Origin: a virus
Taxonomy: Duplodnaviria; Heunggongvirae; Uroviricota; Caudoviricetes
DNA length: 64,000 nucleotides
IMG/VR virus record: IMGVR_UViG_3300029582_000367
Span: 28,950-92,949 of that record
Strand: one strand, 5' to 3'
Shown: piece by piece, positions 2,686 to 61,211 of the stretch
How positions within the stretch are numbered: the stretch's first letter is position 1
Layout: each line of letters starts with the position of its first letter
The notes under the pieces: model-generated
What the model was told of the DNA's origin: nothing
Seen by the model: the letters and a program-made list of their open reading frames with translations, nothing else
Database searches by the model: none
Program-made: the position numbers and the translations under genes

Positions 2686-2960
2686 TCATAGCGGATATTC
2701 AACCTTTTTTGTGTTCCTTGTGCATAGCATGAAAGAATATACCATTCGCATTGGTAATTCTCAGGTACACACGCGAGGTCGATTCCTGCTTCGCAGACCG
2801 CGCCTCTCGCCGTGAGGCGGGAGGTCTTACCAGTCTCCACAGGCGTAACTTTCGGCTCATCCTGCCGTAGTAGGGTTTGCCGGTTACGCTGCGGTGCAGG
2901 TATCCTTTGCCTTTCTTAAAATATTGATTGCCGCATTGATGTCGCGGTCGTGGTGTGCGC
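2686..2960 (-). ncRNA. predicted omega-RNA (reRNA) of tnpB copy 1: 3' end of tnpB + right-end scaffold; guide expected just beyond ~2686
   Basis: conserved structured right end shared by both copies; by analogy with established TnpB omega-RNA architecture. Confidence 0.5.
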
Positions 2961-4002
2961 TGCATTGGGGGCAGGTCCATTCCCGAACCTTTTCATCTTT
3001 CACAGCGGCGTTCTTGTAGCCACAAGAGCTGCAGGTCTGGCTGCTGGGATAGAACCGGTCGATTTGTATGAACGTGCGTCCCGCCCACCGTGCCTTGTAC
3101 TCCAGCATCCGGAAAAACTCAGCCCAAGAGACATCAGCCACGGCCTTTGCTTTCTTGTGATTCTTGACCATCCCTTTGATGTTGAGGTCTTCCACTGCGA
3201 TGACTTGGTTCTCGTCAACGAGCTTCCGACTCAGCTTATGGGCATAGTCTCGACGCTGATTTACAACACGTTCGTGGATGGTTGCTATCTTGCGCCGCTG
3301 CTTCTCATAGTTGGAAGAACCCTTCCGCATACGAGACAGCTTGCGCTGTTCGCGGGCCAGTCGTTTCTCACTATGGATTAAGCAATGAGGGTTTTCGTAG
3401 ATGTTACCGTTATTATCGGCGGCAAATACATGAAGCCCAACGTCAATGCCGACCTCCGTGTTCAGCACCGGCAGCGGTTCAACCTCCTCTTTACAGAGAA
3501 CGGACGCCCAATACTTACCGGTGGCACTGCGGGACACTGTGATATTTACCGGAGCTCCGGTAACGGCACGTTTATCCTTACCGCGCTTTACCTTCCCAAT
3601 GGAGGGAATCTGGACAAACTTCTCGGTCACAATGACCGAGCCATCTGTGGTAAAGCTCTGCTTGGGATTCTTCCGTCCCTTGAATCTCGGATATCCCACC
3701 TTGCCTTTGCCCTTTTTGCAGCGACGGAAGAACCCGTCGTAGGCGTCACAGAGGTGCTGTACCGTAAAATCCAAGGCGTGCCGGTTACAGCTACCCAGCC
3801 AAGGCAGATATGCCTTCATCTCCGTCAGGAGTTTCTTCATACCGTAGTATGAGAGGCTTTCGCCACGGCGCCGGTATGCCTTGGACTTCCGCTCAAGGAA
3901 ATGGTTCCACACAAACCGGCAGCACCGGAAGGTGTTCTCAATCGCCGCTACCTGAGCTTCTGTGGGTTTGATGCACAGCTTGTAAGCCCTATAGATTTCC
4001 AA
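2884..4002 (-). CDS. tnpB: TnpB RNA-guided endonuclease (OrfB, RuvC-like + zinc finger CSSCGY...CPQCSAHHDRDINAAINI)
   Basis: 372 aa; C-terminal CxxC-CxxC zinc finger and DRDINAA RuvC-III-like motif typical of IS605 OrfB. Confidence 0.9.
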   Translation of the reverse strand: MEIYRAYKLCIKPTEAQVAAIENTFRCCRFVWNHFLERKSKAYRRRGESLSYYGMKKLLTEMKAYLPWLGSCNRHALDFTVQHLCDAYDGFFRRCKKGKGKVGYPRFKGRKNPKQSFTTDGSVIVTEKFVQIPSIGKVKRGKDKRAVTGAPVNITVSRSATGKYWASVLCKEEVEPLPVLNTEVGIDVGLHVFAADNNGNIYENPHCLIHSEKRLAREQRKLSRMRKGSSNYEKQRRKIATIHERVVNQRRDYAHKLSRKLVDENQVIAVEDLNIKGMVKNHKKAKAVADVSWAEFFRMLEYKARWAGRTFIQIDRFYPSSQTCSSCGYKNAAVKDEKVREWTCPQCSAHHDRDINAAINILRKAKDTCTAA

Positions 4003-5182: not shown

Positions 5183-6489
5183 ACCAATTCCTCCTTCACA
5201 ACCATCCGCAGCGGCTCTTTCCAGAGCATCCGGCGTCCGGCCTGTTTGCGGCCATCTGCGCCGATGCCCAGTTCCTTGGCTCGCATCACAGTATCCCGCA
5301 ACCGGCCTTGGCCGATGTCGCTGGTAGCCTTTACGGGATAAAAGAGGTTCAGGAACACCTTCTCAAAGGATTCGTCCGAATACTCTTCATCGCCCAGCAC
5401 GGCCACGGCGTAGAAGAACATGACCAGTTTCTTGATAACAACAAATCTGTCGTCCGGACCAACATAGTCCATGCCGGCATAATAGCAGTCGTCACGCCCC
5501 GGCACATAGTAGCCAGCAAACTCGCCATTTAGGAATGCCAGCTTATAGACTACACATACATGGTCTTCCACAGGGACTTCCTTGAGCTGCAAGGTCATGA
5601 GCGACTTGGTGGGGTCATCGAAGGTCACTGTTACGCCATTAAGGGGCAAAGAAGCCTTCTTACCCTTTGCCAGCCGCTTGTCCAGCTCCTCCATGTCTAA
5701 ACGCATCACGAGGCCCTCAAGGGCGCCTCCGTCGTTGTAGGCGATGTTAGCAGGGAACAGACCGTAGGTAGACTCATCCATGTAGGGGAGAAGAGCGCAC
5801 CGCAGGTTCGTGAATACTCTCCGCCGCCTGAAAATGTCATTTACCGCATCGGGGATGTTGGCACAATCCGCAGGGACGATACCCCTTTTCACGAAGGGGG
5901 TGAGGTCAGGAGAGTCTTCATACATAGATAACAACACACACTGCCATTCTGCAACAGAAAAATACGCGAAAGGATTTTCTGCTGTGATAGGTTCACCATT
6001 GGATGTGACACCAATCACCACTTCGCCATCATCCGAAGAGTCTGGACGGAGATAATCCAGAGCGTGTAATACAAGGTCGGCATAGATACCTACAACCTCA
6101 GCTCTGACCGCATCCGTCTTTTCGCTTCGCCGCATTTCCTGCAGCTTGCTCGCCAACTGAAGAAGCGCGGCCACACCGCCTTTTTCGCTTCGCAGGCTCT
6201 CAACCATCTTTCCAAGATAACAATGTAGTTTTTTGGCGAAAAATGTCGGAGTGTCCTTCGCCAGCTCAACCAGTGCCTCAAAATCATTGAGGATGAACTC
6301 CATATCTTTGTCTGCACACACGAGATATGTGTGGATGGAAGCAGACCTGACAGCAGGGAACTCCAATCTATCTAAAATCTCTAAAATCAATAAATCCGTG
6401 GATGCCAAAATACCACATAATTCGACAGGCTGGTTTCGCAGCTCAGTATTCAGCATCCGGACAATTTCGTTCTTCTCGGTGTTCTCCAT
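5179..6489 (-). CDS. hypothetical protein (~436 aa)
   Basis: long ORF; start placed at MENTEKNEIV (RBS AAAGAGAGAG upstream). Confidence 0.55.
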   Translation of the reverse strand: MENTEKNEIVRMLNTELRNQPVELCGILASTDLLILEILDRLEFPAVRSASIHTYLVCADKDMEFILNDFEALVELAKDTPTFFAKKLHCYLGKMVESLRSEKGGVAALLQLASKLQEMRRSEKTDAVRAEVVGIYADLVLHALDYLRPDSSDDGEVVIGVTSNGEPITAENPFAYFSVAEWQCVLLSMYEDSPDLTPFVKRGIVPADCANIPDAVNDIFRRRRVFTNLRCALLPYMDESTYGLFPANIAYNDGGALEGLVMRLDMEELDKRLAKGKKASLPLNGVTVTFDDPTKSLMTLQLKEVPVEDHVCVVYKLAFLNGEFAGYYVPGRDDCYYAGMDYVGPDDRFVVIKKLVMFFYAVAVLGDEEYSDESFEKVFLNLFYPVKATSDIGQGRLRDTVMRAKELGIGADGRKQAGRRMLWKEPLRMVVKEELV

Positions 6490-6683
6490 TTCTTCACTCT
6501 CTCTTTCTTTTACAATTCCGAGTATAGCACAGCGCACATATGTACGCAAGAAGATAATTCACAAAGTTCTGGGCCGAAATAGCTTGCCAACAACAACCTG
6601 TTGTGGTATATTAGATGTAGCCGAAGTCTTTGTTGTGTTTAGGCTTCGCTGCTACTCCTTTCTTTTTTGATTGTCCTTGAGAT

Positions 6684-7811: not shown

Positions 7812-7848
7812 GAAGGCCACCCATGGCGGGTGTCCTTCTTGTTGTTAA
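7812..7848. terminator. bidirectional terminator hairpin (AACAAGAAGGCCACCC..GGGTGTCCTTCTTGTT)
   Basis: 14-bp perfect stem. Confidence 0.6.
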
Positions 7849-8492
7849 GTACGATTAAATGATGAATTTTCCAAAAGATTCTGGGCAAGCATATGCTTAA
7901 TAGACTCAGGGAACACTTTCGTTCCATCCTGAAATGTCACAGTATCATATTTACTTACTGCCGCGTCTTTGGAAAGAATAAAATCGACAAATTCTGCGTC
8001 GCGGCTGTTTTCAATAGCCTTATCCTTGACACGCAGAGTCCTCGGAACATAGCGGTCTTTAACGAGATTCCCATTTTTATCAGCAAACGCCTCTAAGCCA
8101 ATGGTAAAATCGAGATTGGTTACGCCAATTTTGTATGTCAGTGTTAATGTCTGAAAGTCTTTTACAACGCATACAAGACTATTGGTAAGGGAGGGAAGCA
8201 TAAGTAGGCAGAGTAATTTGTTTTTTGCACTGGTGAAAGAGTGCTGACTGTCAAAATAAAACTGTGCCGTTGTCAATTTAGAAGACCTTGCCATGTTATA
8301 AAAAGACTGTGCGTTCAAAATAGAGTTGACACCAGTTAAGTGCATGAATCGGTCTGTCTTAAAAACGACTTCAAAAAACTCGTTACCAAACACATATAAG
8401 AACATCTTGCCAGCAAGTCCGTTACTATATACATTAGAGGCCGTAATAATCTGGTTTCTTACAAGCGCTTTTTTGTTCGCTTTGTTTGCCAT
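7845..8492 (-). CDS. hypothetical protein in AT-rich (~38% GC) cargo segment
   Basis: GGAGAAGG RBS before ATG 8492; GC much lower than surroundings. Confidence 0.55.
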   Translation of the reverse strand: MANKANKKALVRNQIITASNVYSNGLAGKMFLYVFGNEFFEVVFKTDRFMHLTGVNSILNAQSFYNMARSSKLTTAQFYFDSQHSFTSAKNKLLCLLMLPSLTNSLVCVVKDFQTLTLTYKIGVTNLDFTIGLEAFADKNGNLVKDRYVPRTLRVKDKAIENSRDAEFVDFILSKDAAVSKYDTVTFQDGTKVFPESIKHMLAQNLLENSSFNRT

Positions 8493-8907
8493 AAACCTTC
8501 TCCATTCGACATATACGTCTAAAAAATAGGGAGGAGTGGGTTTCACTCCTCCCTTACTTTTTGGTTGAGAGTTTTCTGCTGGTTGTCAGCCGTGACATTC
8601 CTCAGCGGAACATCTATTGGCGCAAGTAATTTAAGTCCCTTGCGTGGACTACAACCGTTGCTGCTCGTTGCCAGCCACGACATCCAGTTAAGATGCCAAC
8701 AGTTATGGGTGTTTACCCTGTCCCATATCCAGCACAACTTTTTGCAGTGCTCTCACACTGAGAAGCATTACTACTTCCACACATAGTATATGCTTTTTTT
8801 CTGAAAATGTCAATCACTTTTCAAACTGTTTCAAAACTTAATTAAATCTGTTATCGCAATGAATTGCTACCCAAACAATAAAGTCTGTAATAGCCTACAT
8901 CAGCCTG

Positions 8908-9180
8908 TTGCTCGGATATTCAACCTTTTGTGTGTTCCTTGTGCATAGCATGAAAGAATATACCATTCGCATTGGCGATTCTCAGGTACACACGCGAGGC
9001 CGATTCCTGTTTCTCAGACCGTGCCTCTCACCGTGAGGTTCGAGGGCTTACCAGTCTCCACAGGCGTAACTTTCGGCTCATCCTGCCGTAGTAGGGTTTA
9101 CCGGTTACGCTGCGGTGCAGGTATCCTTTGCCTTTCTTAAAATATTGATTGCCGCGTTGATGTCGCGGTCGTGGTGTGCG
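8908..9180 (-). ncRNA. predicted omega-RNA of tnpB copy 2
   Basis: same conserved right-end scaffold as copy 1; flanks differ upstream of CGGATATT. Confidence 0.5.
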
Positions 9181-10223
9181 CCGCACTGGGGACAAGTCCA
9201 ATTCCGAACCTTTTCATCCTTCACAGCGGAGTTCTTGTAGCCACAGGAGCTGCAGGTCTGGCTGCTGGGATAGAACCGGTCGATTTGGATGAATGTGCGT
9301 CCCGCCCACAGTGCCTTGTATTCCAGCATCTGGAAGAACTCGGACCAAGAAACATCAGCGACAGCCTTTGCTTTCTTGTGGTTCTTGACCATGCCCTTAA
9401 TGTTGAGGTCTTCCACTGCGATGACTTGGTTCTTGTCAACGAGTTTCCGACTCAGCTTATGGGTATAGTCTCGACGCTGGTTTACAACACGCTCATGGAT
9501 GACTGCTACCTTGCGCCGCTGCTTCTCATAGTTGGAAGAACCCTTCCGCATACGGGATAGCTTGCGCTGTTCACGGGCCAGCCTCTTCTCGCTATGGATT
9601 AAGCAGTGAGGGTTCTCATAGGTGTTGCCATCACTGTCAGCGGCAAATACATGAAGCCCAACGTCAATGCCGACCTCCGTGTTTAGCACCGGCAGCGGTT
9701 CAACTTCCTCTTTACAGAGAACGGACGCCCAATACTTACCGGAGGCACTGCGGGACACCGTGACATTTACCGGAACTCCGGTAACGGCACGTTTATCCTT
9801 ACCGCGCTTTACCTTCCCAATGGAGGGAATCTGGACAAACTTCTCGGTCACAATGACCGAGCCATCTGTAGTGAAGCTCTGCTTGGGATTCTTCCGTCCC
9901 TTGAATCTCGGATATCCCACCTTGCCTTTGCCTTTTTTGCAGCGACGGAAGAACCCGTCGTAGGCGTCGCAGAGGTGCTGTATCGTATAATTCAAGGCGT
10001 GCCGGTTACAGCTACCCAGCCAAGGAAGATAGGCCTTCATCTCCGTCAGGAGCTTCTTCATACCGTAGTACGAGAGACTCTCACCACGGCGCTGGTAGGC
10101 CTTGGACTTCCGCTCAAGAAAATGGTTCCACACGAACCGGCAGCACCGAAAGGTGTTCTCTATCTCCGCTGCCTGAGCTTCTGTGGGTTTGATGCACAGC
10201 TTGTAAGCCCTGTAGATTTCCAA
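9105..10223 (-). CDS. tnpB: TnpB RNA-guided endonuclease (copy 2)
   Basis: 372 aa, ~95% aa identity to 2884-4002. Confidence 0.9.
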   Translation of the reverse strand: MEIYRAYKLCIKPTEAQAAEIENTFRCCRFVWNHFLERKSKAYQRRGESLSYYGMKKLLTEMKAYLPWLGSCNRHALNYTIQHLCDAYDGFFRRCKKGKGKVGYPRFKGRKNPKQSFTTDGSVIVTEKFVQIPSIGKVKRGKDKRAVTGVPVNVTVSRSASGKYWASVLCKEEVEPLPVLNTEVGIDVGLHVFAADSDGNTYENPHCLIHSEKRLAREQRKLSRMRKGSSNYEKQRRKVAVIHERVVNQRRDYTHKLSRKLVDKNQVIAVEDLNIKGMVKNHKKAKAVADVSWSEFFQMLEYKALWAGRTFIQIDRFYPSSQTCSSCGYKNSAVKDEKVRNWTCPQCGAHHDRDINAAINILRKAKDTCTAA

Positions 10224-15357: not shown

Positions 15358-15378
15358 CGCTCAGGCCACGCAACATAA

Positions 15379-15617
15379 GGTATACAACCCTGTTATTTTG
15401 GGGTTTTATACACACCGTGCGAGGGGGTGTAAGGACAACTCTATATGGTATACATCCCTGTTATTTCAGGGTATTATACGCCCCTTGCAATCCGCAGGGC
15501 GTATGCCAGTGTAAGTATAAAACCCTGTTATTTCGGGGGGCTTATACACCTGTGCCGCCTATCAGCCACTCGTCCCGTAGGAGTATACAACCCTGCTATT
15601 TCGGGGTCTTATACACC
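15379..15617 (-). CRISPR. CRISPR-like mini-array C: 4 repeats (15379-15416, 15447-15482, 15515-15550, 15583-15617), 3 unique spacers (30, 32, 32 nt)
   Basis: same 36-nt palindromic repeat family; spacers unique. Confidence 0.55.
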
Positions 15618-15750
15618 CGACACAGGCATATTCAGTTCCCTAAAGTGCTGGCATCATCTCTCACATGATTAACCAGCCAACAGAGTATTCCTGCTTCACC
15701 GACGACCATGCATCTCCACAGGCGTTAATTCCGGTTATACCGTCCGTACG
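15618..15750 (-). ncRNA. conserved scaffold/leader module C (TnpB-right-end-like)
   Basis: as modules A/B. Confidence 0.5.
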
Positions 15751-15917: not shown

Positions 15918-16364
15918 TTACTGCATTTCCGCCCCACACTTGGGGCAGAAATCATGGGGTTCATTGTGGTCGAGATACGACTCCTTCCCACAGTGGGTAC
16001 AACGAGCTTCGTAGTCGTTGATGAACTCCCAGTGCCCCACAGGGGGCATATATGAGGGACGCTCCGTGCGCTCATTCTCAGAGGTCGGCTCGGTCGCCAC
16101 AGGCGTGGGCTTGCCGACTACAATGAGGCTGCGGCTTGCACCCTTGAGATGGGTGATACGTCCTTCAGCTTCCAGACGCTTGAGGTGCGACGCCACCGTA
16201 GAGGGGGAGTTCAGACCAACGCCTGCAGCAATATCACGGATAGAAGGTGAAATGCTGTTCTGCTGGATGAACTCGCAGATGAAGTTGTAGACCTTCTCAC
16301 GAGTCGGAATATTCTTTTCGCTGGTAGCGGTCTCAACGCTCTTGGTGGTGTTCATATTTGCCAT
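15918..16364 (-). CDS. LexA-like winged-HTH domain fused to C-terminal zinc ribbon (CTHCG...CPKCG)
   Basis: IRDIAAGVGLNSPSTVASHLKRLEAEGRI resembles LexA N-terminal DNA-binding domain; no peptidase domain. Confidence 0.6.
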   Translation of the reverse strand: MANMNTTKSVETATSEKNIPTREKVYNFICEFIQQNSISPSIRDIAAGVGLNSPSTVASHLKRLEAEGRITHLKGASRSLIVVGKPTPVATEPTSENERTERPSYMPPVGHWEFINDYEARCTHCGKESYLDHNEPHDFCPKCGAEMQ

Positions 16365-17223: not shown

Positions 17224-18708
17224 TCAGGCAGGGATAAAAACCATGCCAACATTCTTTGCGAGAAGCGCACACCTCTTTGTTAAAACCCTTGCTCCTTTCG
17301 TAGAATTGTAATAATTTGGTGTACCATTATTCCGTCCTGATGACCCCTTAAATACTCCAACAATCCCATCAAAATCCATCATCGCCCCCGGCATGATACG
17401 AGCCATGTCCTTGTACTGGGGTGAGTGAGGCCTTACGGTGAGCTGCGATACCGCAGCGTCGCCGTAAGCCTCGCGGAACTCCTCAAGACTATCGGACTTT
17501 TGCTCAATGGCCTTATGCCGGTTTGCTGCAACGACCTTGCCGTCCAGAAGGTACTTCCGGTCAACCATTTGGCGGATACAAGCCTGCCGGTCGTGCCGGC
17601 GGAGCTGCTTCAACTCAAAGGGTTCGACAGGTGCAGAGACCTTCGTATCTGCATCCAAAATGGAACAGGCGATACAGTAGGCATCCGTATAGTGTTCCTT
17701 CGGCACATTCTTGGCAATGCGGAAGCCCTTGGTGGACTTACCATCCGTGGCATAGACATCGTAGGGAGTCTCTCTTCCGAGGTATTCCATGAGGTGAGGG
17801 ATAATCTGGTTCAGCACGCTCAGGGCGTGGTACTTTTTATTCATACCGCCCTTGCGTGTGACCAGTTTTTCCGCCCACGCCTTGTCCTTGTGGACGAGGT
17901 CGTGATGCCTCGCACAGAGCCCACACCGGTTTGCCAGCGTCTCGCTCCCACCCTTATGGCGTGGGACGACATGGTGATAATGGTCAATGGGCTTCTTGCA
18001 GAACAGGCAATGTCCGTCCTGCTGTGCGTACACCGCATCCTTCACGGAGCCCAGCCCGTACAACGGTCCCTGCTGGTATTCCCATCGACGGATATTGGGA
18101 TTATCCATCGCCATGAAAGCAAAGCGGTTTAGCTCCACTACCACCTTTGTGATGGGTAGAACCTTTGCAATCTTCGCAATCAAGTTGATGTGGGTCTGCA
18201 GCAGATGGTTCGCCGTAGGTGTCAACCAACCCACAGGGCGGCTGCGGTTATTGAACCGCGCCTCCTTATTGCGGATGTAATGACACACAACGGGCTTCTC
18301 GTAGCCGGGGAGCAATCTCTCGATGGTGTTGCTTTCCACGGTAGTCCCAGCAGCTATCGCACGACGCTGGCGCTTCCTGCGCCGGTCCTGTGTGCGATGG
18401 TTTCTCCGAAACGCAGCACGCTTCTTCATCAAGAGAGGTACTTCCTTGTTGCGGGTCTCCAAATGTGCGGAGAACACGCAGGAGCCGTCCTCCTTGACGA
18501 CAGCAACGCCAATATTCGTCCTGCCGGGGTCAATGCCAAAAATCAGGTCTTGGGTGATGTCAGGGGTATCATAGTTCAACTGGATGGTAAACGGGGTGGT
18601 ACAAACAACTCGTGCTTTCTTTTCCTTCAGGAGAAGGCGCACATAGCAATATCGAGTTGTCGGCATCAAAGGTTTACCGTCTTTGTTTTGCACATAGACC
18701 ATTGTCAT
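17224..18708 (-). CDS. iscB: IscB OMEGA RNA-guided nuclease (PLMP domain + RuvC-I/II/III + HNH)
   Basis: N-terminal KPLMPT (PLMP), GIDPGRTNIGVAV (RuvC-I), HNH CLFCKKPIDHYHHVVPRHKGGSETLANRCGLCARHHDLVH, RuvC-III EHYTDAYCIA; 494 aa; GGAGATGAG RBS. Confidence 0.85.
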   Translation of the reverse strand: MTMVYVQNKDGKPLMPTTRYCYVRLLLKEKKARVVCTTPFTIQLNYDTPDITQDLIFGIDPGRTNIGVAVVKEDGSCVFSAHLETRNKEVPLLMKKRAAFRRNHRTQDRRRKRQRRAIAAGTTVESNTIERLLPGYEKPVVCHYIRNKEARFNNRSRPVGWLTPTANHLLQTHINLIAKIAKVLPITKVVVELNRFAFMAMDNPNIRRWEYQQGPLYGLGSVKDAVYAQQDGHCLFCKKPIDHYHHVVPRHKGGSETLANRCGLCARHHDLVHKDKAWAEKLVTRKGGMNKKYHALSVLNQIIPHLMEYLGRETPYDVYATDGKSTKGFRIAKNVPKEHYTDAYCIACSILDADTKVSAPVEPFELKQLRRHDRQACIRQMVDRKYLLDGKVVAANRHKAIEQKSDSLEEFREAYGDAAVSQLTVRPHSPQYKDMARIMPGAMMDFDGIVGVFKGSSGRNNGTPNYYNSTKGARVLTKRCALLAKNVGMVFIPA

Positions 18709-25682: not shown

Positions 25683-25773
25683 ACTTTCTCGTTCATTTTA
25701 GCGTGTGTCGCTATTCTCTGTACTGTCAGTTTTGTCTACGAGTCCGGCGATTTTTTCAAGGAGGCGATTAGAT

Positions 25774-26481
25774 TTGTGTGAGTCAACAAATGATACACGT
25801 AAGTCAGAAAACGTGCAGTGGGGCGAGCGCATGGCGACCTATGTAGGTCTTATGAGGTGGAACGGCTACTCTGTTCAGGAGATTGCCGAAAATCTCAACA
25901 TCTCTCGCCAGCAGGTGTATCTGCACCTGCAGAAAATTCCCTTTCCCAACGAGAAGGCAAGGCGGTATCCCCGTCCTGTTCTGGATGAGGAGCAGGTACG
26001 TGCTGTCATCAGTTACTTTGCCACCAACAAAGATTCATCTGTCACCGCTGCTGCGGAGACAACTGGAATTTCCCTGTCCGATGTTACGATGCTCTGCAAC
26101 AACATTCGTGGCGCTCACTCATGGTATTTCAGCGAAGGATATCCCCTCATTGCGGATTATCTGAACAAGGAGGGAGTCACGCTGGATTATCTGGAGCAGC
26201 TTGCAGGCGTGCAGGGCCTTGCTCAGTATTTGTTCTCCACATACCCCTATAAGGAGATGCCCCAGTCCCGTGCAAAGGCAGTTGCGGCGGTTATCGACGT
26301 TCCTGTGGAGAAGATGATGGCGGTTGCGTTTGCATCCTGCAACATGGCAAATGGAATGGCTACTCCTGAGGAAATGGCCTTGGTCGTTGGCTCCGTGACT
26401 GGTCGTGAAGCGAATACCCGTCTGTTCTATCGCGGACGCCGTATCGCACCCTCGCGGTCTCGTATTGGAGGTGATGCATAA
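25774..26481 (+). CDS. putative HTH DNA-binding protein (sigma-70 region-4-like YSVQEIAENLNISRQQVYLHLQKI); start uncertain (TTG 25774 after AAGGAGG, or ATG 25831)
   Basis: HTH-like segment; plus-strand block. Confidence 0.45.
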   Translation: MCESTNDTRKSENVQWGERMATYVGLMRWNGYSVQEIAENLNISRQQVYLHLQKIPFPNEKARRYPRPVLDEEQVRAVISYFATNKDSSVTAAAETTGISLSDVTMLCNNIRGAHSWYFSEGYPLIADYLNKEGVTLDYLEQLAGVQGLAQYLFSTYPYKEMPQSRAKAVAAVIDVPVEKMMAVAFASCNMANGMATPEEMALVVGSVTGREANTRLFYRGRRIAPSRSRIGGDA

Positions 26482-38028: not shown

Positions 38029-39075
38029 TCAGGCTCTAACATATCGTGCCTTCTTGGACATTCCGATACGTTTAATGCTCCCTTCCTTCACCATGCGTCC
38101 AAGCACAGCCTCCACGGTGGACGGGCTTACATCAGGATGAATGGCGCATATCTCCGCTTTGGAAATTGGCATCAGGCTGCCAAGTACCGTAGCTTCGATT
38201 CGCGTCATCTTCGTGATTTTCTTCCCATTGACGACTGCAAACCGCTTATCCAACTCCTTATAGCACTGATACAGTATGGACAAGAAGTTTTGAATAAATG
38301 GCGCATAGTCGTTGTTGTTCTCCATCCAGCCCTTCGAGGATTGCTCCAGTGCGTCGTAATAATACGCCTTGTGATGGTTGATTTGTTCCTCGAAAGAAAT
38401 GTACTTTCCTACATCGAAGCCGTTTTTGTAGAGCAGCAGAAGTGAGAGCAATCTCGACATTCTGCCGTTACCGTCGCGGAAAGGATGGATACACAGGAAG
38501 TCCAAAATAACGCAGGGAATAAGAAGAAGCAGGTTGATATTGGAGTTGGAACAGGCATCCAAATAGGCCAGTTCCAGTTGCTCCATAGTAGCCGGTGTCT
38601 CTGCCGCAGGTGTGGGACGAAACCTCACACGCCGCGTGCCATCCGCCGCGACTTCCAGAATCACATTGTCATCTGTTTTGTACTGCCCACCGTTCTCGTC
38701 GCCTGCGACTGCCATCATGGTTTCATGGAGCCGCAGAATGTCAGGAACGCCGAAAGACAGGTACTCATATCCTGAATGCACAGCGTTGAGTGCATCTCTG
38801 TATCCGGCAATTTCCGCCTCATCATGGTTCAGAGGCGCACTGCTGTGGTTTACGATTTCCGCAATGCGCTTGTCGCTGGTCACAATGCCCTCAATGGCGT
38901 TGGAGCTCTTTACTGACTGAACTCGCGCAATGGATTCCAGTTCAGTGAAGACTTTTCCAAACTCCTGCTTACGGAAGCCGGCTTCAGTACGAAGAGAGTA
39001 GATTTTGCTCGTGATGTTCACAAGGCTTGCAGGAAGCAGCCCGTTATCGAGGAAAGAATAATCAAACTTTCTCAT
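38029..39075 (-). CDS. fic: Fic/Doc family protein (HPFRDGNGRMSR) with C-terminal winged-helix
   Basis: canonical Fic motif HPFx[DE]GNGR. Confidence 0.85.
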   Translation of the reverse strand: MRKFDYSFLDNGLLPASLVNITSKIYSLRTEAGFRKQEFGKVFTELESIARVQSVKSSNAIEGIVTSDKRIAEIVNHSSAPLNHDEAEIAGYRDALNAVHSGYEYLSFGVPDILRLHETMMAVAGDENGGQYKTDDNVILEVAADGTRRVRFRPTPAAETPATMEQLELAYLDACSNSNINLLLLIPCVILDFLCIHPFRDGNGRMSRLLSLLLLYKNGFDVGKYISFEEQINHHKAYYYDALEQSSKGWMENNNDYAPFIQNFLSILYQCYKELDKRFAVVNGKKITKMTRIEATVLGSLMPISKAEICAIHPDVSPSTVEAVLGRMVKEGSIKRIGMSKKARYVRA

Positions 39076-49219: not shown

Positions 49220-49402
49220 TCAGCAGCCATCAGCAGGGTAGGGCGGGATGGTAACGGACAGGTTGTAGATGTGGTTGCCGCAGCGAACACACTCGGCATC
49301 CTTGTCCCACAACCCACGTTCCTTCATGCCGCGCACGCTGCCCGTACAGTGAATGGACGGGTGCGTGTCTCGCTCATGTTTGGTGAGCTTCTTGTACTTC
49401 AT
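49220..49402 (-). CDS. small zinc-ribbon protein; first gene after module M4
   Basis: AAAGGAGAAACACC RBS. Confidence 0.5.
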   Translation of the reverse strand: MKYKKLTKHERDTHPSIHCTGSVRGMKERGLWDKDAECVRCGNHIYNLSVTIPPYPADGC

Positions 49403-49436
49403 GGTGTTTCTCCTTTCTTTGTTGTCGAAAAATGCA

Positions 49437-49580
49437 ATAAATATATAAAAAAAGACAGCTACCCCAAGATTGGGATAACTGTCTGAATTTATGTGGTGAC
49501 TTGAAAACGGAGATAATCTCCTTTATAAAAATAGCTTCGTAATTATAATTCTATACTACCACAGTTTGATATTTTGTCAA
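49437..49580 (-). promoter_or_regulatory. promoter-leader module M4 (shorter gene-proximal part)
   Basis: same promoter/hairpin family. Confidence 0.7.
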
Positions 49581-49628
49581 TCGTTTTAGGTATCAAATTG
49601 CGTTTACTCTATTTGCACTGTTTTTTGA

Positions 49629-49764
49629 TTTTAGTCGGGATTTCTGAATTTTCAAATTGCAATTTTAGTCGGGAAATCAGAGTTTTAAGAACTAAACTTT
49701 AGTCGGGAAAAACCGAATAAAAATTTGAGATTTTAGTCGGGAGAACAGGAACAAACATAGTCCA
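49629..49764. repeat. iteron-like array: 4 x TTTTAGTCGGGA at exact 34-bp periodicity in AT-rich spacer
   Basis: repeat starts 49629, 49663, 49697, 49731. Confidence 0.6.
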
Positions 49765-49832
49765 TGAAAACCGCATAACCAAGCCATTTTCGAGCGTTTT
49801 CTTTCTTTCAAATTCAGCAAAAATTGAGAAAA

Positions 49833-49860
49833 AAAGAAAAGCCCCCGAAGGAGCTTTTCT
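49833..49860. terminator. terminator (AAGCCCCCGAAGGAGCTT hairpin with A/T runs)
   Basis: hairpin + runs. Confidence 0.5.
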
Positions 49861-49895
49861 TAGTGGAAAAATCAGTGCTTTGCTGTGAAAAGTTT

Positions 49896-51330
49896 TCAGG
49901 AAAGATGCTCACCCATGAACTTGGCAAAATCATCCCAGAATCCGAAAAAACGATTGCGGATAAGAGTGGGGCGATTGCCGGCAGTGATATGTCCATCGGT
50001 TTCTTCGGCATTCAAGATGCCCCAGAGCTTAACAAGCAGCAGCTTGTACTCAGCGCTCTTTGGAACGATGTGCTGGTCCTCAACCATATTGTCCCAAAGA
50101 GTCCGCAACATCTCACGGTCCTTTGCCTTGGCAAAATCAGCCGTTCGGCAGTACAGCCAAATGGTCTTGAAGTCCCAGAAGGCTTCACTTTCCGATGACT
50201 CCTCCTTGGAGGTATTCTTGCCGCCAGTGACTTCCTGCTTCTTGCCATCGACATCAATGACAACGCCAGTATCGGAGTTACGTGCAATAGCATGGATACG
50301 CAAGTCCTCGATGAGATTGGTCAGCGCCAAATTCAGGAGCACGTTCCAGTAGCCGTTCATGCTCATGGAAGAAAACCGACTAAAGTCTCTGTCATGGATG
50401 ATTTCAGGGATAGCTTCGACGAGGCAGTGCAGATTCCCCAGCCGCGAAGAGACGCGGTTGAAATCCGCAACGTCCATGGCAAACAGGTCGCCCTCGTAAC
50501 CGAGTGCCTTCGCCAGACCGCCAGAGACCTCGTAGTGCTTCTCCACGTGGATGAGGCCGTCCCCATCGTCATCCTCGCCGGCACTGTCATCCGTGCCTAA
50601 ATCGGTGAAGAAAGCAACGACTCCCTCAGGAGTCCACGAGTGTGTCGCATCCTCCCGAAGCGCGTTGAATACCCGAACAGCCAGATTGTTGTTGCCCTCA
50701 CACACGGCGAGAATCTCGTTCCATGTGTACGAGGCAAACGGTGCCACGCTGCAGTCCTTTCCGGTGATGTAGCAGACCAAATCGGGGAAGGTCGCCGCAT
50801 TGTAGGCGTTGATGTAGCCATTCAGCCACTTTCCGTCCTTACCAAACGGCTTACCATCCTTTTTACTGCAGATGCCCATGACCAGCAGGAGGTGAAGCTC
50901 CAGCATAGACAACGGAATGAGCTTCTCTTTGGTCTGATGCAGCCGTTCACGGATATAGAGCTCCGCCAGTTCCGTGGCAGTCACATTCACGACAGAGCCC
51001 TTCTCAGCCTCGGCAAAGAAAACGTCGCTCGCCTCAGAAGTAGGCAGCACGTAGCAGCGTTCTTTTACATAGGCCCGAAAAACGTTGTCATAAATCTTGA
51101 TGCCCTTCTTCTTTTTTTTCGTCGCTCTCAACCGGAACGAACCGGCAGGACATTTGCCCGAAAACATCATTCTGCATGATGTCCTCGTAAGCCTTTGCGA
51201 AGTCGATGAGGTCGCCATCCACCACGATACGGTGGTCGCCTTCCATCTTTTCCAGTCCCTTTTCAGGAAATCCAAATAGGGAGTTGTAGCAAAACTGATT
51301 CATTCTTTTTTTCTCCTTTCGATTTTTCAA
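49896..51330 (-). pseudogene. gene split by frameshift at A8/T8 homopolymer (51112-51119): N-terminal 80-aa frame (51088-51330) + C-terminal ~400-aa frame (49896-51120)
   Basis: two long ORFs in different frames abut exactly at a poly-A run (KKKKK vs EKKEEG readings). Confidence 0.55.
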
Positions 51331-53793: not shown

Positions 53794-54237
53794 TCAGGCC
53801 AGCAGTGACATACCAAGCCGAACAGTCTTCAGAGGAAACTGGTCGGCATCGAGACGGAATGTTGTGCCGCAGTCGGAGCAACGTGCTTCGGGACCGTAGG
53901 CACTTCCGTGCTTCGGGCCGAACTTCAGGCTTCCGCAGATGGGACAGGTGGCACAGAGCAGAGTCGCTCCTCGTACCTGAATATCCAGAACGCTGGTGCC
54001 GGCAGGTGAGTTCGTCCAGCCCGCCAGATAAGCAGGGGAGACGCCCAGCACCTCAGCGAAGCGTTCCAAAGTCTTCAGGGGGATATTCTCCACTCGCCCA
54101 GACTCATACTTGTAGATGGTCTGCGGTGTCACCTCACACCTTTCTGCAAGCTGACTCTGAGATAGTTCCAGAGACAGCCGTGCATTTTTAATGCGGACAG
54201 CAGCAAGCGGCAGGGAAGTGGTTTGAGAAGTGCTCAC
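53794..54237 (-). CDS. XRE-family HTH regulator fused to C-terminal zinc ribbon
   Basis: LSQSQLAERCEVTPQTIYKYESGR HTH; CATCPICG...CSDCG. Confidence 0.7.
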   Translation of the reverse strand: MSTSQTTSLPLAAVRIKNARLSLELSQSQLAERCEVTPQTIYKYESGRVENIPLKTLERFAEVLGVSPAYLAGWTNSPAGTSVLDIQVRGATLLCATCPICGSLKFGPKHGSAYGPEARCSDCGTTFRLDADQFPLKTVRLGMSLLA

Positions 54238-55931: not shown

Positions 55932-56642
55932 TCACAGACTTCCTTTCGGTTTGATTTTCGGCGCATACATATCTTTGCCCTGCTTTTCGTAGAAAAGCGT
56001 CTGCGTCTTGTTCGTCCCATCCGGTCTGATATTCTGATACGAAGGATGCTTTGGAAAAGCTGCCATTAGTTTTCTGAACCGCGCCACCGCCTCTGAAGGC
56101 TTGCATTTTGCGGCCACATAGTAGTTCAACGGACTGGCCTGCCCGAATGTCATAACTTCGGAATGGGGACGCTTCATCATCTCGATGACCTCGTCCGTGA
56201 AAGCCCCACGGATTGAATCCGGTGTCTTGGTTCCATCCTCGTTGGCATAGGCTTCCAGATTCATCTTATCGAATCGAATGAGAGGGTCGATGATATGCTT
56301 GTCATCTACGACGATGAAGCTGTGGTGGGTAGGGACGGCATCGCCTACGAAGAGCCAGCCGGCATACGGAACGGCGTTCTTCACGCCTGCGGCAACCAGA
56401 GCGTCCAGAATGCGCTGGGTGTTCTGATAGCAGTAGCCGACATCGACCTCCGTGGCATCGAAGGCCTGTCGAATGGTGTCGGTCTCTACACCTGAGGGAA
56501 ATGGAAGTGTGTTGCCGTAGCTAAACACTTCCATTGTCCCCGTCATCGGATACATCTGTGAAGGTATCTTAATAGGCTTTTCGCTGAATGACGGGTTGAT
56601 GTAGATAGCATGAGAGCGTAATACCTCAAGGCTACTTGTCAT
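55932..56642 (-). CDS. hypothetical protein
   Basis: GAGGAGGA RBS. Confidence 0.5.
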   Translation of the reverse strand: MTSSLEVLRSHAIYINPSFSEKPIKIPSQMYPMTGTMEVFSYGNTLPFPSGVETDTIRQAFDATEVDVGYCYQNTQRILDALVAAGVKNAVPYAGWLFVGDAVPTHHSFIVVDDKHIIDPLIRFDKMNLEAYANEDGTKTPDSIRGAFTDEVIEMMKRPHSEVMTFGQASPLNYYVAAKCKPSEAVARFRKLMAAFPKHPSYQNIRPDGTNKTQTLFYEKQGKDMYAPKIKPKGSL

Positions 56643-57312
56643 TTCTATCTACGTCCTCCTCAGTCTCAGTAGCACTATTAAGTGAATTACAGAGCTTCTT
56701 CTCATAGTCGGAAAGCAGAAGTTCTCCAACATTATTGCTTTTGATGCCTACGAGGTCACAGATTTCCTGTTTGCTCCAGAAAGCATTTTCCCTGCATTTA
56801 TAGGTGTCGCCATGTGCCTTCTTGAATATTCTATCCGTTGAAGAGCCGGAGTTGTCATAAATATGGCAGATGTCGCATAGGTCAACAAAGGCCTGAACCC
56901 TTGCCAAAGACTTTTCGTACCGAGACCGAATCTTTTCTTCAGGTACGTCGTGGCCTCCAGATTGAACACGTTCCCAAACACGAAGTACGTTTACGGATGC
57001 GTCTTTCGTAAGAACGAAAAAGCCTTTTATGAAATACCCATGCTCTTTTGCATATTTTAGAAATTCCAGTTTTTTATTCGTGGACAAAACTGTCTCGAAG
57101 GTAAAATCTTCGCCCCATTCTACACACTGTAAGCGCATTGCATCAGCCTTCTGTGCCGCTTCCAAATCGCTGCATCCAGTTTCTTTTTTGATGTCGTCTG
57201 CGTTGATATACGGGGGTAGTATATCTACTCTACTTGTAAGTGAGCTTTTACCTGACCCGTTAGGCCCAGCGAAAACGATAATGCAAGGTTTCCGCTGTTT
57301 CTCATTTGACAT
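56632..57312 (-). CDS. P-loop kinase of zeta-toxin/AAA_33-like fold (FAGPNGSGKSS)
   Basis: Walker A immediately after N-terminus, size and layout like zeta/PezT toxins. Confidence 0.5.
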   Translation of the reverse strand: MSNEKQRKPCIIVFAGPNGSGKSSLTSRVDILPPYINADDIKKETGCSDLEAAQKADAMRLQCVEWGEDFTFETVLSTNKKLEFLKYAKEHGYFIKGFFVLTKDASVNVLRVWERVQSGGHDVPEEKIRSRYEKSLARVQAFVDLCDICHIYDNSGSSTDRIFKKAHGDTYKCRENAFWSKQEICDLVGIKSNNVGELLLSDYEKKLCNSLNSATETEEDVDRNDK

Positions 57313-57517
57313 ACTCGATTCTCCCATCCGGATACAGTAAATAGGCACACTTTTTCTCTGCATCATAGCGAGCAACAGGAATACCTTTCATTTTTGCCCG
57401 TTGATAGGCTTCAAAGGCTACCGACGAAATCCGACGGTCCATTTCCGCATCCTCTTCGTCACAGTGAGGGTCTTCATATAGGCAAGTTTTGGATACGCCC
57501 TTTACGAATTCTTCCAT
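57302..57517 (-). CDS. small protein overlapping start of zeta-like gene by 11 nt (candidate epsilon-type antitoxin)
   Basis: AAAGGAGGATACAACT RBS; 71 aa; position. Confidence 0.4.
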   Translation of the reverse strand: MEEFVKGVSKTCLYEDPHCDEEDAEMDRRISSVAFEAYQRAKMKGIPVARYDAEKKCAYLLYPDGRIEYVK

Positions 57518-57650: not shown

Positions 57651-58109
57651 TCAAAATGGCAAACCAAGAGGCACATCTGTCGAAGGCAGAGATGTGTTCT
57701 CAACAGTGGCCTTCTGCTGCATCGCCGCCAGAATGGTGTTCTGTTGCTGCAGCAATGCATTCTGTTGGGCAATGAGAGAATTCTGCTTTGCTATGAGCTG
57801 CAGCGCCGAGTTGTAGAAGGCTCGTGCAGGAACAGAGGAATACGCCGCCTCGTCGGGAATGTCTTTTACCTGCTGGGTCTCAGAAAGGCCCAGCAGATAA
57901 TCAACAGAGACGTTGTAAACATCTGCGATTTTTGCGAAGCAATCAATGCTCGGCACGATGCGTCCGCGTAGCCATGTTGCGACAGATTCCGGCGCAACAC
58001 CGATAATCCTCGCAGCTTCCGTCACGGAGTCACCGTTGTCTTCCATCAATACCGTGAAGCGTTCGACAAAAGACTTCTTGAGCTTTTCCAGAAAGGCATC
58101 CATTGTGGG
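57651..58109 (-). CDS. XRE-family HTH transcriptional regulator
   Basis: VTEAARIIGVAPESVATWLRGR HTH; GGGAGG RBS. Confidence 0.65.
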   Translation of the reverse strand, partial: PTMDAFLEKLKKSFVERFTVLMEDNGDSVTEAARIIGVAPESVATWLRGRIVPSIDCFAKIADVYNVSVDYLLGLSETQQVKDIPDEAAYSSVPARAFYNSALQLIAKQNSLIAQQNALLQQQNTILAAMQQKATVENTSLPSTDVPLGLPF

Positions 58110-60866: not shown

Positions 60867-61211
60867 TCAAGAACAAGAAAAAATATCACAGAGAACAGAA
60901 CGCACCTTGGCGAGAACCTCATCGGGCAGATGGCCGACAACATCGTACTTGTTCGCCATGATGTTGAAATAGCTTACATACTCACACAGGACGGTTCCGC
61001 TACGAGGAGGACACGTCTTCTCATCGAGTATAACATGGTATGGGCCGTGCTCAGTTTCGTAGGACAACGGACACACCCAGACGAAATCTGTTACTCCGTG
61101 CAGCGTATCGTTGCTTACAACGAGCAGGGTACTTGTGACACCAAACTTCATCGCGCCGTCGGTGGGGTCGAATTTGGCGATGATGATATCGCCTCTTTTC
61201 GGTCTACTCAT
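60867..61211 (-). CDS. MazF/PemK-like endoribonuclease toxin
   Basis: RGDIIIAKFDPTDGAMKFGVTSTLLVVSND...VCPLSYETEHGPYHVIL matches MazF/PemK core pattern. Confidence 0.7.
   Translation of the reverse strand: MSRPKRGDIIIAKFDPTDGAMKFGVTSTLLVVSNDTLHGVTDFVWVCPLSYETEHGPYHVILDEKTCPPRSGTVLCEYVSYFNIMANKYDVVGHLPDEVLAKVRSVLCDIFSCS

Follow-up and report, generated by a model that had tools for sequence, protein, structure and literature searches.

Several well-known systems are built on arrays of short direct repeats bound by proteins. Iterons typically measure 17-22 bp and recur at a spacing of ~22 bp, about two helical turns. Among the accessory origins of phage T4, oriE carries iterons together with the repEA and repEB genes, and oriF and oriG combine a promoter with an unwinding element; oriE is reportedly a non-essential extra origin. 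Centromeres of types Ib, II and III, and some sites bound by terminase, typically consist of direct-repeat arrays as well; the known centromere repeats are contiguous or have 7-20-bp periods. At the RNA level, some ToxI-family arrays have a 34-nt period. A different kind of repeated element, the promoter-stem-loop (PeSL) cassette, mediates module shuffling in T4-type phages (PMC2839356, PMC4122927).

Here we describe an array that belongs to this class of short direct-repeat protein-binding arrays. It lies in a 64-kb window (the whole stretch of DNA that we analysed, 64,000 nucleotides) from a predicted gut phage. We tentatively favour reading it as a lineage-specific cis-regulatory or architectural element that would act on the adjacent early promoter through putative protein-binding sites.

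The repeat array and its setting

The window belongs to a group of predicted gut phages, represented by IMG/VR contigs of up to 192 kb and also by gut-metagenome contigs, and none of the cultured phages and plasmids is similar to it. A large phage is the best reading of the element, although the sequence examined holds no virion gene, and its host is probably Gram-positive. The original prediction had taken it for an island and a putative mobile element, a view at odds with its place among these phages and with its lack of transfer genes. Pfam and PHROGs searches of ~80 open reading frames, which included the suggested look for Rep and ParB, found no Rep, ParA, ParB, ParM, TubZ, relaxase, terminase (including large terminase) or capsid protein. 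As the same scans gave no relaxase or type IV secretion domains, and the element falls in a predicted phage group, an origin of transfer is not supported.

Pfam matches in the window comprise two TnpB genes, an IscB-like RRXRR protein, a DNA methylase, a CobT/VWA and AAA pair, an SPFH protein, and Fic, zeta-toxin-like, PBECR4 and non-specific endonuclease domains. Additionally, four HTH-type DNA-binding proteins are candidate binders of the array: an HTH_3 and Zn-ribbon protein (53794-54237), an HTH_3 protein (57651-58103), a LexA-type and Zn-ribbon protein (15918-16364), and a 258-aa HTH_23/sigma-r4-like protein (25705-26481) with HTH_23 and HTH_7 matches and a weak Terminase_5-like match.

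The TnpB/IscB-type genes lie at 2884-4002(-), 9105-10223(-) and 17224-18708(-) in the window, and at 848-2332 in L086, 4208-5227 in L088 and 6878-7936 in L103; TnpB combines OrfB_IS605 with a Cas12f-like TNB domain. Their positions differ between sister genomes, and thus these RNA-guided nuclease elements are actively mobile in the phage group. Toxin-type domains (zeta toxin, Fic, PBECR4 nuclease, non-specific endonuclease and PemK) are dense in the co-directional, presumed early region (window 56632-57375, 38029-39075, 7845-8546, 30705-31496 and 60867-61211; L090 5628-6215), interspersed among many open reading frames with no known relatives, which suggests a block of host-takeover or anti-defence genes. 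One tRNA gene was matched by Rfam in the window (32558-32643). Further upstream, in L103, the ~166-168 kb region of contig IMGVR_UViG_3300045988_183936, a putative tRNA-gene cluster, judged by eye (~8440-9470), is followed by several TTGACAAAAT-type promoters (~9560-9870) before a RecG-like helicase gene. Here, a long run of co-directional, presumed early genes seems to begin. The window and that contig are not colinear: 33.6 kb separate the LexA-like gene from the array in the former, ~93 kb in the latter.

A CRISPR-like array occupies 15375-15640 of the window (also L093-L102, ~3150-3600), between the LexA-DBD/Zn-ribbon gene and a DNA methylase gene. It has four palindromic repeats of ~36 nt at a 67-68-bp period, reading GTATACAACCCTGTTATTTCGGGGTyTTATAC on the + strand (also given as GTGTATAAGACCCCGAAATAACAGGGTTGTATAC), with unique, GC-rich spacers. 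There is no cas1 or cas2 in the window, and the array is an orphan. Sister phages keep the repeat in 2 to 6 copies with different spacers, those at one end being common to several genomes, a pattern of polarised turnover. This phage-borne array with its spacer turnover is of broader interest than the array with the 34-bp period, and could serve to identify the host.

The four repeats of the array with the 34-bp period share an exact 11-mer core, TTTAGTCGGGA, on the + strand at 49630-49640, 49664-49674, 49698-49708 and 49732-49742. The original prediction described four 12-bp direct repeats, which is exact for three copies; the third is preceded by C rather than T, and the shared core is the 11-mer. 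Read directly, the sequence gives ATTTTAGTCGGGA at 49628, 49662 and 49730 and ACTTTAGTCGGGA at 49696, where the core is also followed by an imperfect inverted copy, CCGAATAAA. The predicted exact periodicity stood: the cores start 34, 34 and 34 bp apart, each period making 3.24 helical turns. The array end that had been given, 49764, lies one spacer past the last core (49742). Over both strands of the 64 kb, these four are the only matches to the 11-mer with at most one mismatch (chance expectation 0.95), and 0 of 100 dinucleotide-preserving shuffles of the window reached four matches. Within the window, the 8-mer TAGTCGGG is likewise confined to the array.

Beyond a core of 11 bp, 13 at most, the units diverge. 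Each 13-bp unit head is followed by a 21-bp spacer, and the spacers (71% A+T) show pairwise identities of 24-52% against 31% expected by composition (permutation test, p = 0.058), so that the earlier description of unrelated AT-rich filler was fair. As spacer identity is near random, recent duplication cannot explain the identical cores. Whole units share 11-13 of 34 nt and are too dissimilar for Tandem Repeats Finder, which did not report the array. The period of 34 bp is not a multiple of three, and thus the array is not coding. A structured RNA was rejected as well: neither strand of the array folded better than shuffled sequence (z = +0.77 and +0.32), and an Rfam search on it gave no family, with sub-threshold terminator-like matches alone. 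We regard the array as a real and probably functional feature.

Almost every gene here is on the - strand and is preceded by a strong AAAGGAG ribosome-binding site. Along the direction of transcription, the upstream gene (49896-51275) is followed by its operon's intrinsic terminator (49834-49861, -; a 12-pair stem, UUCG loop and T-run), ~70 bp of AT-rich DNA, the four repeats, which read TCCCGACTAAA on the transcribed - strand, 47 bp of further sequence, and a near-consensus sigma-70-type promoter (49553-49580, -; TTGACA, 16 nt, TG-n-TAGTAT). Thereafter come a leader with a GGAGA-TTA-TCTCC hairpin, a 14-pair terminator-like hairpin (49484-49453, -) and the first gene of module M4 (49220-49402, -), which encodes a 60-aa Cys/His-rich protein and is also found in sister phages without the array. 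The placement of the array between the upstream operon's terminator and the next module was thus correctly predicted. It lies directly upstream of the promoter and is co-oriented with transcription, spanning -84 to -196 from a predicted start site near 49546; the centres of cores 1 to 4 fall at ~-89, ~-123, ~-157 and ~-191, core 1 being nearest to the promoter. On the + strand, a promoter-like site at 49522-49549 is aimed into the array, and a gene for a ProQ-C-like protein lies ~1 kb downstream.

The last two features bear on a role at the RNA level, in which a read-through transcript carrying UCCCGACUAAAAU four times, or an antisense transcript started at the antisense promoter of the cassette, would act as a ToxI-like sponge or decoy for an RNA-binding protein or nuclease. 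The antisense promoter-like site and the ProQ-C-like gene would suit such a role, as would the 34-nt period, and type III antitoxin RNAs such as ToxI and CptI also consist of tandem units (~34-45 nt) in a mobile-element context. However, the units of type III antitoxins are near-identical, whereas 11-13 of 34 nt are shared here, and a linear RNA motif needs no exact spacing. The array, which lacks both a fold signal and an Rfam match, also sits behind a strong terminator, with no ToxN-like gene adjacent and no promoter-repeats-terminator-toxin layout. A ToxI-like antitoxin proper was rejected for its dissimilar units, absent fold and missing toxin gene, and we consider any RNA-level function very improbable.

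Distribution of the array and of its core motif

We found the array on five IMG/VR contigs, two ENA metagenome contigs (OQVS01000146.1 and OIZT01002295.1) and two ENA/Logan contigs. The IMG/VR carriers include IMGVR_UViG_3300045988_183936, 3300029310_000398 and 3300030040_000294. Every carrier has the same four units in the same flanks, with no insertion or deletion within the array. The carriers represent five haplotypes, which differ at nine positions of 49629-49764 and at none of the 44 core bases; if substitutions were random, the haplotype counts put the chance of this at (92/136)^9, or ~0.03. Unit positions 12 and 13 vary among carriers, and in one of them (L086) the promoter-proximal copy has changed from TAAAAT to TAAAAA. 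As all variable positions lie outside the 44 core bases, the motif and its spacing appear to be under selection. The carriers are all of one closely related lineage, and thus this evidence of conservation is shallow.

Sister phages that share the upstream genes at ~85% nucleotide identity have the same terminator and cassette; in place of the array, 63 unrelated bp separate the two. Additionally, 13 other contigs carry module M4 (49580 to ~46500) at 77-98% identity without the array; their homology begins no more than 7 bp from the -35 hexamer (49580-49587), and the DNA upstream differs. Sister contigs include 3300045988_183931, 183785 and 183830. Among related loci there is no other short-repeat array of this type, and the 11-mer is absent from ~30 kb of further sequence of the array-bearing lineage (~95 kb including the window). 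As some sister phages keep the terminator and cassette without the array, and others carry M4 without it, the array is a dispensable, lineage-specific segment of ~243 bp (49586-49829). As close sister phages do without it, it is not an essential origin or partition site.

These comparisons weigh on the central proposal of the original prediction, that the array marks an origin of replication, an origin of transfer or a par site. The prediction itself had pointed to homologous elements as a check, and the sister phages, with both flanks and without repeats, weaken the proposal on its own terms. The missing Rep, Par and relaxase genes among the ~80 open reading frames and the lack of a DnaA-box cluster tell against it too.

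For arrays of the phage type, pattern scans of viral, metagenome and genome sequences returned this phage lineage alone, the remaining matches being unrelated satellites or short duplications. Megablast with a 12-kb query matched nothing in phage and plasmid collections, and a sensitive blastn with the 245-bp segment had no meaningful result.

The 11-mer itself does occur elsewhere. Among 185,579 species genomes scanned, 29 loci held two copies at a distance of 12-42 bp, most of them unrelated low-complexity satellites in Bacteroidota and other phyla. Four metagenome-assembled genomes (three Lachnospiraceae and one Acetatifactor) have tandem arrays of 4-10 units with a 52-53-bp period that contain the 11-mer (L023 ~115-340; L029 ~6100-6320; L030 ~5940-6500; L033 ~3600-3900). 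An inverted partner of the 11-mer, which would form a hairpin, is present too in the units of L029 and L030, more weakly in those of L033. These arrays lie in ordinary chromosomal intergenic DNA and have no neighbour gene in common; judged from open reading frame translations, the neighbours look like pyrB/pyrI, holA/comEC and secY, together with a MerR-type regulator. They constitute an undescribed host repeat family, and may offer a lead to a host-type repeat or host factor, their relation to the phage array being unproven.

If they are related, the phage array could be a passenger with no function for the phage, a host-type intergenic repeat like STAR, REP or BOX that was picked up or expanded in this lineage. 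The common 11-mer, a run of 15 bases shared by one phage unit and an L030 unit, and the dispensability of the array are all consistent with such an origin. However, the host arrays have another period, near-identical whole units and mostly an inverted motif partner, and the 25 other matches in unrelated phyla indicate that such 11-mer matches arise by chance at that database size. Moreover, neutral decay cannot yield 44 of 44 conserved core bases beside randomised spacers. Thus, we think it improbable that the array is a mere passenger.

Possible roles of the array

Identical cores, exact spacing and randomised spacers point to sequence recognition at the DNA level with a constraint on the distance between sites, a combination that is the signature of cooperative head-to-tail protein binding. 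The general idea of a binding array in the original prediction holds: the repeats look like phased protein-binding sites, consistent also with the absence of core substitutions in five haplotypes and of RNA structure.

Under the cis-regulatory or architectural reading that we tentatively favour, the four equally spaced, same-orientation sites would form a platform for a sequence-specific DNA-binding protein, each 11-bp core taking a monomer or a single asymmetric unit. With a helical pitch of 10.5 bp, a 34-bp step rotates successive sites by ~86 degrees, and the bound protein would form a cooperative complex that wraps or writhes the DNA rather than binding along one face. This complex would act in cis on the single cassette, which it might repress, activate or insulate, and M4 would thereby gain lineage-specific control with no counterpart in sister phages. 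The binder may be one of the phage HTH proteins or a host factor.

As in an operator array, the sites are conserved in sequence and positioned relative to a promoter, with invariant cores, a common orientation and a span of -84 to -196. Dispensability in sister phages also fits an accessory regulatory element. Several observations count against regulation: no site overlaps the -35 or -10 element, the nearest site centre (~-89) is far for a simple repressor or a class I/II activator, and successive sites fall on different helix faces. Furthermore, the 11-mer occurs at no other promoter and nowhere else in the ~95 kb of the lineage, no autoregulated gene indicates a partner, and the same cassette occurs without an array at four other sites of the window and in sister phages.

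Should the repeats prove to be a binding platform, they would offer a compact handle for finding a DNA-binding protein of an uncultured large gut phage, with the 136-bp fragment usable as pull-down bait. They would also show a generic early-promoter cassette gaining lineage-specific control or origin function. As a dispensable accessory of one narrow lineage, the array is of limited general importance.

The main rival to a regulatory platform is an accessory, non-essential replication origin, in which the repeats would be iterons for a phage-encoded initiator and the easily melted start of the cassette would be the unwinding element. The least stable class of 40-mer in the window comprises the first transcribed bases of the cassette (49519-49558; dG -40.9, mean -55.8), which lie beside a strong promoter and ~70 bp from core 1. 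The repeats have one orientation and exact spacing in AT-rich intergenic DNA, and large phages such as T4 tolerate non-essential origins. The locus resembles iteron origins (phage lambda ori and the theta plasmids P1, F, RK2 and pPS10) in having at least three regular direct repeats in AT-rich DNA near an easily melted stretch and a promoter. It resembles the T4 accessory origins in its dispensability, its early region, its promoter with unstable DNA and, in the case of oriE with its iterons, its short repeats.

However, the layout is not the classic one that had been claimed, since an 11-bp core at a 34-bp period departs from the typical iteron size and spacing. The easily melted stretch is common to all five cassettes, and hence is not specific to the array. 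The proposed look for a change in GC skew found none at the array, gene orientation does not change there either, the genes being co-directional on both sides, and DnaA boxes do not cluster. The flanking genes match no known family and have no Rep-like domain, so that, in contrast to iteron origins, there is no recognisable adjacent initiator and, in contrast to oriE, no recognised RepEB-like protein. The absence of the array from sisters with both flanks tells against an origin as well. We therefore rate an accessory origin as possible but rather unlikely.

One further feature could favour an origin. The upstream gene encodes a 468-aa protein in relatives, which occur only within the phage group (eight close homologues in total), and its C-terminal extension of ~95 aa (~49896-50214) is present only in array-bearing genomes. 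It is the sole coding feature that travels with the array. As all carriers are one lineage, this co-occurrence reflects linkage and is not independent evidence; in addition, the extension is not basic by residue count, and the AlphaFold model of the protein is unusable (pLDDT 37). Even so, the array and the extension might be a recently acquired, self-contained module of a DNA-tethering domain and its cognate sites, converting the cassette into an accessory origin or DNA-anchoring point. We consider such a module unlikely; if real, it would be an example of how large phages gain new cis-acting origins in their shuffled early regions. In the window, the upstream gene is split by a frameshift in an A-rich run (51088-51330 and 49896-51275, -), reading …DEKKEEG… against …DEKKKKGIKIY… in intact 468-aa relatives, which may reflect slippage, a pseudogene, or an error of sequencing or assembly. 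In one sub-lineage (L088/L089), a TnpB gene is inserted into the 468-aa gene at the extension junction, beside the array site.

A centromere-like partition site or a pac/cos-type packaging site, bound by a centromere-binding protein or a small terminase ring, would also involve cooperative binding to direct repeats. The array shares with parC of R1, pSK41 parC and tubC of pBtoxis its direct repeats, and with them potentially cooperative binding and DNA wrapping. Beyond the fondness of centromeres and some terminase sites for such arrays, the 258-aa protein with its HTH and weak Terminase_5-like matches could be cited in favour. However, the repeats of those centromeres are contiguous and lie directly upstream of a par operon, whereas a 34-bp period lies outside the geometry of known centromere repeats, no par or terminase operon adjoins the array, and ParA, ParM, TubZ and large terminase are missing among the ~80 open reading frames. 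The array is not terminal on any carrier contig, and sister phages lack it. A partition or packaging role is accordingly highly doubtful.

Other candidates were rejected. The repeats are not -10 elements (TAAAAT), since L086 lacks the T, copy 3 deviates and there are no -35 elements; nor are the units decayed copies of the cassette promoter, their alignment score being no better than shuffled. For a transposon end, there is no inverted cluster in 64 kb, and a lone inverted 9-mer at 50376 is within chance and not conserved. A CRISPR array, with repeats of ~23-50 nt, or an anti-CRISPR mimic does not fit units that share 11-13 nt, with the same four units in all carriers and no spacer turnover, in contrast to the CRISPR-like array at 15375-15640; eight nucleotides (GACUAAAA) are shared with the 3' end of some Cas13a repeats, but there is no hairpin here and we take the match to be a coincidence. 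Among the host-factor motifs of Spo0A, CodY, sigma-28 and Noc, none is known to fit all four copies.

The promoter cassette and described systems

The promoter below the array is part of a 160-bp promoter-leader-terminator cassette (49428-49587, -), one of five copies in the window. The others, at 60824-60664, 370-220, 55664-55520 and 44280-44129 (all -), are 89-93% identical, and the promoter part alone recurs at 19059-19023 (-). Each cassette joins a near-consensus extended -10 promoter to an invariant leader of ~85 nt with a small hairpin and then to a terminator hairpin, which is supported by compensatory changes among relatives. The succession of promoter and terminator suggests either a small RNA or antitermination (regulated read-through). 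At the other four cassettes, the preceding gene's terminator directly adjoins the -35 region and there is no array; the extra upstream DNA with the array is unique to the copy at 49587. Module exchange between sister phages breaks at most 7 bp from the cassette -35 hexamer.

For the array, read tentatively as a regulatory platform, the nearest counterparts are operators made of asymmetric direct repeats, such as those of the phi105 repressor and the P2 C repressor and the stoperators of mycobacteriophage L5. Those sites overlap or flank a promoter or are dispersed genome-wide, whereas here four sites are clustered upstream of one promoter, with the motif nowhere else. In common with the array, they are asymmetric sites of ~11-14 bp, in one orientation and in intergenic DNA between co-directional genes. 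Stoperators have also been discussed for phage TLS (PMC11447400).

For the cassette, the counterpart is PeSL. A five-fold cassette mediating module shuffling is of broader interest than the array. The 160-bp cassette differs from PeSL in its unrelated sequence, its greater length and its invariant ~85-nt leader. Like the PeSL of T4-type phages, it is a conserved early promoter with a stem-loop, repeated between the modules of a variable region.
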